A DNA stretch of 64,000 bases from Escherichia coli (GCF_003334305.1 NZ_QOWS01000015.1); one strand, 5' to 3'. Positions 22,547-54,161 are shown, numbered from the stretch's first letter. Notes: generated by a model not told the origin, from the letters alone. Made by a program: numbers and translations.

Positions 22547-24145
22547 TTAACGTAACGGCATAATGGGCGTGATATGTCCATTATGCCGGGCGGGCGGCGG
22601 TTGGCTGCCCGCCAGCCATTTGGGAAAATCACGTAGCGGCATCGGCTGTGCGTACAAATACCCTTGCAAAATATGCACGCCATGACGGCGCAAATACTTC
22701 GCCTGTTCTTGCGTTTCCACGCCCTCCGCCACCAGTTCAATATTCAGTCTTTGCCCCAGCGCGATGATGATATCGGTCACCGTCGAGTTAACCGCGTCAG
22801 AACCTATAGCTGCGGTAAATGACTTATCAATTTTCAGCACGTCAGGACGTAATGTTTCAAGCCAGGAAAATGAACTGTTGCCGGTGCCGAAGTCATCAAT
22901 CGCCAGTTTGACGTTTTTACGATGTAGCTCGCGGGCAATCCGATAATCAACATCCAGTAAGGCATCGCGTTCGGTGATTTCGAGGATCAGTTGCTGAATC
23001 GGGTGAGCGCTAAACCAGTACTGATTGAGATCTTTTATCAGCACACCACGGCGAAAATGGCTGGGTGCGACGTTAATGCCAACATGAAACTGACTACTCA
23101 TCGGGAAAACATGGCGCTGACGAATGGTTTCTGCCATCACATAGCGGGTCAGTGGCACAATTAAATGATGTTCTTCCGCGATAGGAATAAACACATCCGG
23201 TGAAATCCAGCCCTGACGCGGATTATTCCAGCGCAGCAAAATCTCTACACCAATACATTGCTGGCTGCGCGCATTAAGCAAAGGCTGACAGAACAATTCG
23301 AACTCATGTTGCGCCAGGCCCAGATTGATTTCGCGGGAAAAGCTCATCCGGTAAGCGGTCGCCAGCCAGGCAATGTAGCCCACCAGTAAACTTAGCAGCA
23401 CCGCCAGCGGTAATTGTGTTGGAAGATAGTGCCATGCCAGCGCCGTAGCCCCCGGACCATTAACGTTAATGGTAAAAGGAAAGCGTTGCGAAGAAACCTG
23501 ATAGTTTTCATTGTCTTCAGGTTGCGGAAGGGAATCTACCAGCCCATTACCATAGAGCAAATGCCGTTTGTCCACCGTCAGGCTGGCGCTACTGATTTGC
23601 GGCAGTTGTGGCTCAAGGAGCATTGCCGTCAGTAAGTCGATGTTAATCATCTCCATGACCCCAGCATTGCTACTGCCCGCTGCAGGCGTCCATTGAATCA
23701 AAACCGGACTGCCTTTAATCAGGGCACGGTCGATCGTCAGGCGTAAAAGTGGTTGCGGTGCAGGAAGTTCAGCCAGAATGTCCACGACGGGCACATTGCG
23801 ATAACCAAAAATGCTGGAGCAATAGAGTGTGCCGTCTTGCACCAGGCCAATGGATCGCACAGTTTGGAGTTTTGCCGCCTGTTTACGTAATGGCAAATGG
23901 GCGACAGAGCAGGGCAGACCAATCAGCGGAAGCAAGACTTCGCTACCTGCCTGTAGGGGAAGCAGTACTTTATCTAATTCCTCTACAGCGTGATTGGCGA
24001 ATTGTACTACCCGTTGTTGATTTAAGTTACGCTGTGAAATAAATCGCACGCTCAGGGTCGAAGCGAGCGTAACGAGTGCGCAAATCGTACAAACAATCAT
24101 TCGATTACGGCGATAGGTTTTAATGATCCGTTGTGCTTTTTGCAT
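22547..24145 (-). CDS. pdeD: c-di-GMP phosphodiesterase (CSS-EAL), YoaD
   Basis: ORF 22547..24175 trimmed to MQKAQRIIKT start (532 aa); C-terminal EAL-domain signatures. Confidence 0.85.
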   Translation of the reverse strand: MQKAQRIIKTYRRNRMIVCTICALVTLASTLSVRFISQRNLNQQRVVQFANHAVEELDKVLLPLQAGSEVLLPLIGLPCSVAHLPLRKQAAKLQTVRSIGLVQDGTLYCSSIFGYRNVPVVDILAELPAPQPLLRLTIDRALIKGSPVLIQWTPAAGSSNAGVMEMINIDLLTAMLLEPQLPQISSASLTVDKRHLLYGNGLVDSLPQPEDNENYQVSSQRFPFTINVNGPGATALAWHYLPTQLPLAVLLSLLVGYIAWLATAYRMSFSREINLGLAQHEFELFCQPLLNARSQQCIGVEILLRWNNPRQGWISPDVFIPIAEEHHLIVPLTRYVMAETIRQRHVFPMSSQFHVGINVAPSHFRRGVLIKDLNQYWFSAHPIQQLILEITERDALLDVDYRIARELHRKNVKLAIDDFGTGNSSFSWLETLRPDVLKIDKSFTAAIGSDAVNSTVTDIIIALGQRLNIELVAEGVETQEQAKYLRRHGVHILQGYLYAQPMPLRDFPKWLAGSQPPPARHNGHITPIMPLR

Positions 24146-24275
24146 GCGGGCCACCCTGTAAGCGTATGGCGACAAACGCCTGACGCAACAGTGGAAGTGT
24201 AGTGGGGAATATTACAGCAGACGAGAAAGCGGGTATAAATTCGCCCATCCGTTGCAGATGGGCGAGTAAGAAGTA

Positions 24276-25640
24276 TTAGTCACACTGGACTTTGATTGCC
24301 AGACCACCGCGTGAGGTTTCGCGGTATTTGGCGTTCATGTCCTTACCGGTTTCGTACATCGTTTCGATGACCTTATCCAGCGAGACGCGCGGTGCACTGG
24401 TGCGGCGCAGAGCCATCCGTGCGGCGTTAATCGCCTTCACAGAGGCAATGGCATTACGCTCAATGCACGGCACCTGAACCTGCCCTGCAACCGGGTCGCA
24501 GGTTAAACCAAGGTTGTGTTCCATGCCAATTTCCGCCGCCACGCAAACCTGTTCCGGGCTACCGCCCAGCAGTTCTGCAAGACCCGCAGCAGCCATTGAA
24601 CAGGCAACACCCACTTCGCCCTGGCAACCAACTTCCGCACCGGAAATAGAGGCGTTCATTTTATACAATGCACCAATCGCGCCCGCTGCCATAAAGTAAC
24701 GGGTATAGATGTCCGGGCTGACCGATTCAATAAAGTGGTCATAGTAAGCCAGCACTGCCGGAACGATACCGCAGGCACCGTTGGTTGGCGCAGTTACCAC
24801 ACGACCACCGGCGGCGTTTTCTTCGTTAACTGCCAGCGCAAACATGTTTACCCAGTCAATGACATTCATCGGATCGTTAGACAGTTTATCGCTGGAAACT
24901 AACATCCGGCGCAGGGCAGACGCACGACGTGGCACGCGCAGCGGGCCTGGCAGTACACCTTCGGTGTTCATCCCGCGATCGATACATGCCTGCATGGTTT
25001 GCCAGACATGCGCGAAATACTCGTCGATCTCTTTCTTGCTGTGCAGCGCCAGTTCGTTCTGCATAGCGAGACCAGACAGCGAATAGCCGGTTTCATTACA
25101 GTACGCGAGCAGTTCGGTGGCAGATTTGAACGGATACGGCACGCTCACTTCGTTGGCAGCATCCTGACCAAAGTGTTCTTCATCGACGATAAAACCGCCG
25201 CCGATGGAATAATAAGTTTTGCTGTAGACGACTTCATCGCCGTTATAGGCGTGGATTTGCATACCGTTTTCATGCAGCGGCAGGTTGCCGTTATGAAAAC
25301 GCATCCCGTTGTCGCGCGGGAAATCCACTTCATGCCGTCCCTGTGCCAGCAGCAGACGTTCGCGCTCTTCTACGTCGCGAATAAAACCGGGAATACTGTC
25401 GATATCCACGGTGGCAGGTTCGTTACCTGCAAGACCCATAATAATGGCGATATCGGTGTGGTGGCCTTTACCCGTCAGCGACAGTGAACCATAAACGTCC
25501 ACGGCAACGCGAGTAACGCTATCCAGTAAGCCTTTTTCGACCAGATCATCGACGAACTGTTTACCCGCCTTCATAGGCCCTACGGTATGGGAAGATGAGG
25601 GACCAATCCCCACCTTAAACATGTCGAATAGACTAATCAC
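24276..25640 (-). CDS. sdaA: L-serine dehydratase 1
   Basis: 454-aa ORF; synteny. Confidence 0.95.
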
Positions 25641-52505: not shown

Positions 52506-52685
52506 GATAAATGGCACTCCTTCGGTTAGTGAAACGAGAAAACCAGATAAAGTTCGATTGCGGCCTGGCACAGGGGCGCTAATTATACTCATCTCTGCGC
52601 CGCTGGGGAGGGGAAATTTAGGGGTAATAGTAATAAATGGTATGCAAAAGCCACGCAAAAAGCATGGCTCTGAATATTTTTGCAC

Positions 52686-54161
52686 TTAAATATGATGAAT
52701 AATCACTTTGTTGCCCCCCTCGCTTTTCGCTTCGCGTAAGGCTTTATCTGCTTCCGTCATGACAAGCGAGATATTACGCGTGTCACCCGTTGAAAAAACC
52801 GTGCCAATACTGATGGTCATTTGTTCAGGAACATCATATCTGTTACTAAAGCCGGTCAGGAGTTCGACATTTTTACGCATACGTTCCGCAATGATTTTTG
52901 CCTGGGCACTATTGAGTTCGGTAAATAGCAAGCCAAACACCTCACCCTCCAGTCGCGCTAAAATATCATCAGGGCGGATGCTTTGCTGGATAATATCGAC
53001 AATTGAAACCAGCACTTTATCACCCACACGATGTCCCCATTGGGCATTGATGCGTTTGAACTGATTAATATCAACCAGCATGACACAGAAGTCCTTAACA
53101 ACAGGTCGCGACAATAATGACTCTACGCTGTTGAAAAAGTAGCGCCGATTATAAATATTGGTCAGCACATCATGAACTGCCAGTTTGCTGGAGAGTTGCA
53201 GTTCCTGAAAAATGTTATAAATCAGAAAAGACACAACAAACAGTTTACTGGAAACTTCAATCCCGCGACTGATATACCAGATGGTGTAATTATACTCATC
53301 CAGAGTCAGTAGAAGTAAGTTGCAGCATAGCGATGCCAGACATAATAATGCTATTAACGGCCATAGTTCGCTGGCTAATCGTGTACGCATGATAATAAAG
53401 AACAGTAAAAATGCCCACAGACAAACCAATATTTTTGTATAGTTGATTCCCCAGGTCGCAGTATGGTTGTCCGGACAGTAGTCGACGACATACAAAGAAT
53501 AGTCAGCGTTATAACTGCTCAGATTGTGTGCCAGAAGGGGAAAAACTAAAAAAGGAATCAGCGCCAGCAACAGGATTCCCGTTTTTTTCTTATTGTTGTC
53601 AAGGATGTTGTCTTTTCCATAACAAAAGAGTGCCAGCGAGGTTAAACAAATAAAACTGAGTTGGCGGAAAATATAGAAAATAGAAACATCATTCGACTTT
53701 GTCTGGATCAGTGTACTGCCGTTAATTGGTTTATGGATAATTACAATGGTTTCAACTAAATAGATAAGGCCACTTAAAAATGCAAGGCTTAAAATGAGTG
53801 TTGGTAAAATTTGTTTGTTAGTGAAATATTTCATTAACATGAAAAGAAAAATGACGGCGTTAAGGAAAAATAAAGCCACAACAACCATCAGGTAATTCAT
53901 CTGTGGGATGAGTTTTACATTTGTGTTTTCGTTATATAATGTGGTGATGCAAAATAAAATTAACGTCAGCAATAAACTGAAAATAAAAAAGCTTTGAGCT
54001 TTTAATTTTTGTGTACCCATAGAAACCATAAAAAGGAGAGCAATGTGAGTGCTGGATTTTATTGATGGCAGAGATATATAGTTTTGACCAGGATCAATTT
54101 TCGTTAACGATAAAAAATATTTAAAGAATAACCCCATGGAAATACGTGTTGACTGAATCAT
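52686..54161 (-). CDS. cdgI: Degenerate GGDEF-domain membrane protein (YeaI)
   Basis: 491-aa ORF; GGDEF position reads EGEVF, i.e. degenerate. Confidence 0.85.
   Translation of the reverse strand: MIQSTRISMGLFFKYFLSLTKIDPGQNYISLPSIKSSTHIALLFMVSMGTQKLKAQSFFIFSLLLTLILFCITTLYNENTNVKLIPQMNYLMVVVALFFLNAVIFLFMLMKYFTNKQILPTLILSLAFLSGLIYLVETIVIIHKPINGSTLIQTKSNDVSIFYIFRQLSFICLTSLALFCYGKDNILDNNKKKTGILLLALIPFLVFPLLAHNLSSYNADYSLYVVDYCPDNHTATWGINYTKILVCLWAFLLFFIIMRTRLASELWPLIALLCLASLCCNLLLLTLDEYNYTIWYISRGIEVSSKLFVVSFLIYNIFQELQLSSKLAVHDVLTNIYNRRYFFNSVESLLSRPVVKDFCVMLVDINQFKRINAQWGHRVGDKVLVSIVDIIQQSIRPDDILARLEGEVFGLLFTELNSAQAKIIAERMRKNVELLTGFSNRYDVPEQMTISIGTVFSTGDTRNISLVMTEADKALREAKSEGGNKVIIHHI

Follow-up and report, generated by a model that had tools for sequence, protein, structure and literature searches.

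In a 64-kb stretch of Escherichia coli DNA (NZ_QOWS01000015.1; the whole stretch is called the window below), four genes of the cyclic di-GMP (c-di-GMP) network, pdeD (yoaD), dgcP (yeaP), dgcJ (yeaJ), and cdgI (yeaI), lie within about 32 kb. At a probability of about 0.88, we read them as four independent network genes that came to lie this close by chance, of which CdgI is a selectively maintained c-di-GMP receptor or regulator rather than a cyclase. An earlier note on this DNA had placed the four genes in the segment where we find them, and had taken the degenerate motif of YeaI as a sign of a non-catalytic, possibly c-di-GMP-binding role. All four lie on the minus strand. That proposal is borne out: the motif EGEVF of CdgI falls on the GGEEF of solved cyclases, the RPDD of the inhibitory site (I-site) is kept, and binding has been published.

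The window spans manX to yeaD and is part of the core chromosome of E. coli, as annotated by RefSeq in strain A28 and in K-12 MG1655, where the four genes carry the names used here. Every complete E. coli genome searched (5,426) has a match to an 8-kb sample of the window, which is 100% identical in strains such as H15, A7, and A28. All four genes are near-universal: the 8-kb stretch that bears pdeD is present in 5,423 of these genomes, dgcP in 5,408, and the dgcJ-cdgI stretch in 5,390 at a coverage of at least 80%. The segment of interest runs from the pdeD stop codon at 22547 to the cdgI start codon at 54161. Each of the four open reading frames (ORFs) has a single, terminal stop codon and the length given in the RefSeq annotation. 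Compared to MG1655, PdeD, DgcJ, and CdgI show no amino acid difference, while DgcP shows one (Y63H); synonymous nucleotide differences number 9 in pdeD, 9 in dgcJ, and 12 in cdgI. All four genes are thus intact, as the note had supposed. A phmmer search with the four proteins, which covered every six-frame ORF of the window with 60 amino acids or more, detected no further GGDEF or EAL ORF. Domains were called with Pfam, the DgcJ equivalog with NCBIfam, and hydrophobic segments with a hydrophobicity scan. The Pfam annotation assigned an EAL domain to PdeD and GGDEF domains to DgcP, DgcJ, and CdgI, and the motifs quoted beforehand were all present in the translations (RLGGDEFLV in DgcP, RLGGDEFCI in DgcJ, and RLEGEVFGL in CdgI). 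The hydrophobicity scan fits the expected topologies, with two segments around a periplasmic domain in PdeD and DgcJ, many segments in CdgI, and none in DgcP.

The gene cdgI (52686..54161, minus strand) encodes 491 amino acids as annotated, and its product equals the MG1655 b1785 protein, which is annotated there as "putative c-di-GMP binding protein CdgI". Pfam places a MASE4 domain at residues 88-319 (53205-53900; PF17158, 1.4e-48), which contains multiple hydrophobic segments, and a GGDEF domain at 52707-53180 (PF00990, 1.3e-44). While the fold of the latter is clearly matched, an intact active site (A-site) of the form GG[D/E]EF is not present. Instead, residues 405-409 (52935-52949) read EGEVF and align exactly on the GGEEF of the solved cyclases 6ZXM, 3IGN, and 8WCN, so that the first glycine and the glutamate at the fourth position are replaced and the glutamate at the third position is kept. 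We aligned the GGDEF domains of DgcP, DgcJ, and CdgI with those of 6ZXM and 3IGN. Invariant in this alignment are the Mg-binding aspartate, the lysine, asparagine, and aspartate of DxxFKxxNxxxGHxxGD, the arginine before the motif, and a distal lysine. Flanking positions have drifted in CdgI, with IND changed to INA, ALYE to ALRE, and GRN to GGN. DgcJ and CdgI both have the I-site motif RxxD, which DgcP lacks. In CdgI it reads RPDD (residues 396-399; 52965-52976), and its spacing is canonical, since it is followed by the five residues ILARL and then by EGEVF. Because the first glycine and the second acidic residue are missing from its A-site, CdgI is predicted not to act as a cyclase.

This picture agrees with much of what has been published. 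The yeaI string "KNAHDREGEVF" was already tabulated in 2012 (Spurbeck 2012, PMC3484386). Sarenko 2017 (PMC5635695) describes CdgI as a protein with a degenerate A-site and an intact I-site and states that the purified protein binds c-di-GMP (Fig. S4B therein). The study also reports that the GGDEF domain of CdgI makes strong heteromeric contacts with the GGDEF domains of several other proteins and that CdgI is toxic upon overexpression. It proposes that pairing into heteromers may allow CdgI to inhibit cyclases, with c-di-GMP as a possible modulator. YeaI has furthermore been termed "catalytically non-functional" and grouped into the MASE4-GGDEF family with DgcT and DgcX (Cimdins-Ahne 2023, PMC10459773). 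E. coli K-12 has the same 491-residue protein with MASE4, a degenerate GGDEF domain, EGEVF, and RPDD, encoded at the same site between yeaH and dgcJ by a gene that differs by 12 synonymous nucleotides only; the domains and motifs of K-12 DgcJ, DgcP, and PdeD are likewise those of the window. Like CdgI, the active cyclases DgcT (YcdT) and DgcX consist of MASE4 followed by a GGDEF domain. In contrast to cyclases of this type, CdgI carries EGEVF, INA for IND, ALRE for ALYE, and GGN for GRN, and because these residues replace those of cyclases we do not class it with them. Receptors that bind c-di-GMP at the I-site of a degenerate GGDEF domain are represented by PelD and PopA. CdgI resembles this type in having lost the A-site while retaining RxxD, and in the c-di-GMP binding published for the purified protein, but differs in its N-terminal domain, which is MASE4. 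CdgI is most likely a membrane-anchored c-di-GMP receptor or regulator, in which the binding shown in the literature would occur via the RPDD I-site, and which may possibly pair its GGDEF domain with those of other proteins, as the literature proposes.

To place the degenerate site in an evolutionary context, we aligned 16 MASE4-GGDEF relatives obtained from a protein-collection search with CdgI. Relatives with at least 64% identity have glutamate at the first motif position (EGEVF, EGEEF, EGNVF in E. albertii, and EGKRF). In the same group, INA or INN stands for IND, and GGN for GRN, except in E. albertii, which has SGN. ALYE has become ALRE in E. coli and E. albertii, ALSD in the relative with 77% identity, and ALQC in the one with 64%. 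Those with at most 62% identity (38-62%), Citrobacter included, read GGEEF, IND, ALYE, and GRN (GKN in two). The I-site residues R396 and D399 are invariant in 16 of 16 sequences. The E. albertii orthologue and the Citrobacter orthologue with GGEEF are both located between yeaH and a GAPES1-GGDEF dgcJ homologue, and on a short contig the gene with 64% identity (EGKRF) is immediately followed downstream by a GAPES1-GGDEF gene. Since the syntenic Citrobacter orthologue reads GGEEF, the A-site of CdgI decayed in place in the lineage to Escherichia, from an active-looking cyclase gene of the MASE4-GGDEF type, while the neighboring dgcJ remained intact. Purifying selection maintains the resulting state. 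Compared with E. albertii, the GGDEF domain of CdgI has a ratio of nonsynonymous to synonymous substitution rates (dN/dS; Nei-Gojobori) of 0.069, CdgI MASE4 one of 0.082, and the GGDEF domain of DgcJ one of 0.018. The degenerate domain hence evolves about four times faster than the active GGDEF domain of DgcJ, and it is clearly under purifying selection, which argues against CdgI being a dead remnant.

Some further observations concern cdgI itself. Residues 1-44 (54030-54161) are not encoded in E. albertii, Citrobacter, and the relative with 64% identity, in which in-frame stop codons precede the equivalent of Met45/Met48; Met48 is nearly invariant. A divergent group of E. coli cdgI alleles shows 3-4 changes in residues 1-44 compared to 1-2 in residues 45-170. 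No Shine-Dalgarno sequence is visible before Met45 or Met48, while GGAAAA precedes the annotated ATG. From the comparison of sequences, the true start of CdgI may be Met45 (54029) or Met48 (54020). Truncated E. coli alleles of 345, 295, and 281 amino acids (P0013, P0019, and P0023, with 639, 249, and 934 member sequences, respectively) stop before or just inside the GGDEF domain; the full-length cluster has 10,877 member sequences, and the allele in the window is full length. It seems that cdgI has been knocked out repeatedly in some lineages. A recent tandem duplication as the origin of dgcJ and cdgI was ruled out, because their sensor domains, GAPES1 and MASE4, are unrelated and because either GGDEF domain resembles that of DgcP as closely as it resembles the other.

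The active-site comparison yielded complete catalytic residue sets for the remaining three proteins. PdeD (22547..24145, minus strand; 532 amino acids) is annotated as such by RefSeq in strains that are 100% identical here and equals the MG1655 b1815 protein. It consists of a first transmembrane segment (TM1), a periplasmic CSS domain (residues 43-240; 23426..24019; PF12792, 1.8e-42), a second transmembrane segment (TM2), and a cytoplasmic EAL domain (residues 273-501; 22643..23329; PF00563, 3.9e-58), and its hydrophobic segments cover roughly residues 15-37 and 241-265. A residue-by-residue alignment with the active EAL domain of PA3825 (4Y9O) placed EILLRW, NVA, EITE, DDFGTG (22880-22897), KIDK, EGVE, and LQG of PdeD on their counterparts, so the catalytic set of an EAL phosphodiesterase is complete. 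The designation of PdeD as an EAL protein accordingly holds for the domain, while the triplet itself reads EIL (residues 301-303; 23237-23245); the substitution of isoleucine for alanine is harmless because the catalytic glutamate is retained. With this full active site, PdeD would be a membrane phosphodiesterase that hydrolyzes c-di-GMP. The yoaD residues have been tabulated as "EILR QRDD TE ENEEDKEQ" together with the CSS motif, and a heterologous phosphodiesterase complemented the phenotype of a yoaD deletion (PMC3484386). The periplasmic loop contains two cysteines, Cys79 and Cys109, the latter within the Cys109-Ser-Ser motif (23813-23821). Five CSS-domain phosphodiesterases, defined by two conserved cysteines, are known in K-12, PdeD included (Herbst 2018, PMC5897775), and the roughly 200-residue loop between two transmembrane segments with its two conserved cysteines conforms to this type. 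PdeC and PdeB share with PdeD the order of TM1, two-cysteine CSS loop, TM2, and canonical EAL domain. By analogy with these two proteins, PdeD is probably redox-controlled via Cys79 and Cys109, in that a periplasmic disulfide between them would restrain the enzyme.

DgcP (45806..46831, minus strand; 341 amino acids, GTG start) is a cytoplasmic GAF-GGDEF protein with a GAF_2 domain at residues 17-155 (2.3e-10) and a GGDEF domain at residues 175-330 (5.7e-41). Its GGDEF motif comprises residues 253-257 (46061-46075), and QNGE stands at the position of RxxD, so that an I-site is lacking. Codon 63 (46643-46645), within the GAF domain, encodes histidine here compared to tyrosine in K-12; with 340 of 341 residues identical, DgcP carries the sole amino acid change from K-12 across the four proteins. 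DgcJ (51015..52505, minus strand; 496 amino acids) is composed of a transmembrane segment, a periplasmic GAPES1 domain (7.8e-151), a second transmembrane segment, and a GGDEF domain (6.1e-40) with GGDEF at residues 423-427 (51225-51239) and an RKSD I-site (51255-51266). It matches the NCBIfam DgcJ equivalog NF040885 over residues 4-495 with 747.7 bits (cut-off 500). Both proteins score above the cut-off of TIGR00254 and have the A-site of a cyclase, i.e., GGDEF, the Mg-binding aspartate, and the guanine-contacting asparagine and aspartate. PMC5635695 includes both in its count of 12 active K-12 cyclases, and DgcJ specifically activates NfrB, the glycosyltransferase that makes the receptor glycan of phage N4 (Junkermeier and Hengge 2021, PMC8669469). 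DgcJ binds NfrB directly and is specifically needed for N4 infection (PMC8669469). Judged from their residues, DgcP and DgcJ would both be active diguanylate cyclases, the latter acting locally on NfrB as described in the literature. Upstream of the dgcJ ATG, the reading frame continues without a stop as far as the base that follows the stop codon of cdgI, which with a GTG at 52685 gives an ORF of 556 amino acids (extension at 52506-52685). This extension is most likely not translated, because AAGGAG precedes the annotated ATG at 52505 and the equivalog match begins at residue 4.

Several points weigh against our reading. The activities of all four proteins are assigned from conserved residues and from the literature. 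Only for PdeC and PdeB have control by a disulfide and processing by DegP/DegQ been demonstrated, which sets them apart from PdeD (PMC5897775). Alleles of cdgI without the GGDEF domain are common in the protein database, indicating that the gene is dispensable in some lineages, and CdgI was undetectable under standard laboratory conditions (PMC5635695). The latter two points would also be expected if cdgI were a functionless remnant decaying towards a pseudogene, as would the finding that a cdgI deletion in a laboratory strain caused a minor phenotype only (PMC8117528). This is hard to reconcile with dN/dS values of 0.07-0.08 over both domains, 12 synonymous and no nonsynonymous differences from K-12, the invariant I-site residues, and the presence of the stretch in 5,390 complete genomes at the coverage given above. 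Moreover, CdgI binds c-di-GMP when purified and makes strong and specific contacts through its GGDEF domain (PMC5635695), and we consider this explanation hardly credible. A very unlikely alternative is that CdgI works as a diguanylate cyclase despite EGEVF and feeds the c-di-GMP pool directly. Older literature speaks for it: PMC3484386 lists YeaI with "verified diguanylate cyclase activity", citing Sanchez-Torres 2011, and the biofilm defect of a yeaI deletion in no-salt lysogeny broth was complemented by the cyclase WspR, although WspR failed to complement the deletion in M9-glycerol (PMC3484386). In addition, CdgI retains the Mg-binding aspartate, the guanine-contacting asparagine and aspartate, and the glutamate at the third position. 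The c-di-GMP level was reportedly lower in the yeaI mutant of Sanchez-Torres et al. (2011). However, the first glycine and the fourth-position glutamate of GG[D/E]EF are both replaced in CdgI. In PleD, WspR, and other cyclases, replacing just one of these residues is enough to destroy activity, which speaks against a working enzyme. Positions 3 and 4 are also free to vary in the orthologue clade, which is unexpected for a functional active site, and the protein is treated as inactive in Cimdins-Ahne 2023 (PMC10459773) and in PMC5635695. Full-text literature searches for "EGEVF" and for "YeaI" with "E407A" returned no match. As the older literature lists YeaI as a verified cyclase, a non-catalytic CdgI is the majority view and not a unanimous one.

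A different question is whether co-regulation or joint transfer holds the four genes together as a functional "island" or module of c-di-GMP signaling. Nominally their proximity is unusual: at least four of the 29 GGDEF/EAL genes catalogued in K-12, to which all four belong and which are thus already known, fell inside 31.6 kb in 2.3% of random placements on 4.64 Mb (P ~0.02). The dgcJ-cdgI pair is, moreover, retained in E. albertii with dgcP a few kb away, and the pair also in Citrobacter. If dgcJ and cdgI, being adjacent, are entered as a single unit (three of 28), however, the proportion rises to 32% (P ~0.3), and co-location is a weak signal. About 35 unrelated housekeeping genes intervene, e.g., sdaA, pabB, fadD, rnd, dmlA, and nimT. 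Expression differs as well, with PdeD being RpoS-dependent, DgcP vegetative, and CdgI silent (PMC5635695). The three GGDEF domains are mutually no closer than to any other paralogue (phmmer 1e-10 to 1e-14), and the sensor domains of all four proteins are unrelated. The region is no mobile island either, since it belongs to the core chromosome and is 95-100% identical in essentially all E. coli. Promoter- and terminator-like sites around cdgI and dgcJ did not exceed the counts expected from shuffled sequence, with the exception of a clear hairpin followed by a T-run after yeaH (54275-54303). The functional-island reading is largely refuted, and we regard it as extremely improbable. Under the reading we favor, the four genes would be separately transcribed and independent, and their proximity within 32 kb happenstance.

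Additional features of the window lie outside these genes. An IS200/IS605-family element of 1,748 bp (43360-45107) is located between yoaG and yeaQ and is absent there in K-12. It carries tnpA (43417-43848, minus strand) and an intact tnpB of 402 amino acids (43856-45064, plus strand), whose ORF carries a frameshift according to the annotation of A28, a near-identical strain. In other strains, copies with about 98% identity adjoin ydcO (annotated insQ) or yfeD, and the median number of matching places in a genome is 3. As the insertion lies inside the 3' end of K-12 yoaG, the C-terminus of YoaG differs (189-bp compared to 183-bp gene); the four c-di-GMP genes are unaffected. K-12 MG1655 lacks a 224-bp segment (39423-39646) in which the yeaV 5' end and a portion of the spacer between dmlA and yeaV are located. 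Owing to its presence, YeaV has 536 amino acids here, compared to the shorter K-12 gene (1,446 bp), and the K-12 yeaV allele looks 5'-deleted. An Rfam scan of the window detected only two matches, both unrelated to the c-di-GMP genes: the small RNA sroD in the fadD-rnd spacer (34471-34556, plus strand; 114.6 bits, gathering score 50) and a full-length match to the cspA thermoregulator model (14961-15421, plus strand; 135.7 bits compared to a gathering score of 78). The latter presumably marks a cspA paralogue, with the leader of its mRNA and its coding region.

Overall, the window is a clean negative, without a new or disrupted c-di-GMP component. The earlier note had called its content known biology rather than novel, and rightly so: the same residues were tabulated in 2012 (PMC3484386), c-di-GMP binding by CdgI is documented in PMC5635695, and domain maps, motif tables, and expression data for these genes have been published already. 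What our analysis adds is small, namely that the A-site decayed in place beside a conserved dgcJ and that the degenerate domain is selectively maintained. Together, these two observations support CdgI as a functional receptor or regulator over a dead enzyme. MASE4-GGDEF and GAPES1-GGDEF (dgcJ) genes stand side by side from Citrobacter to E. coli, and loss of the active site with retention of the I-site in the MASE4-GGDEF partner is confined to the Escherichia branch. It is conceivable, though unlikely, that in the course of evolution CdgI became a partner or inhibitor of the neighboring DgcJ, gated by c-di-GMP, that tunes the DgcJ-NfrB pathway. If this were true, CdgI would tune the building of the phage N4 receptor glycan.

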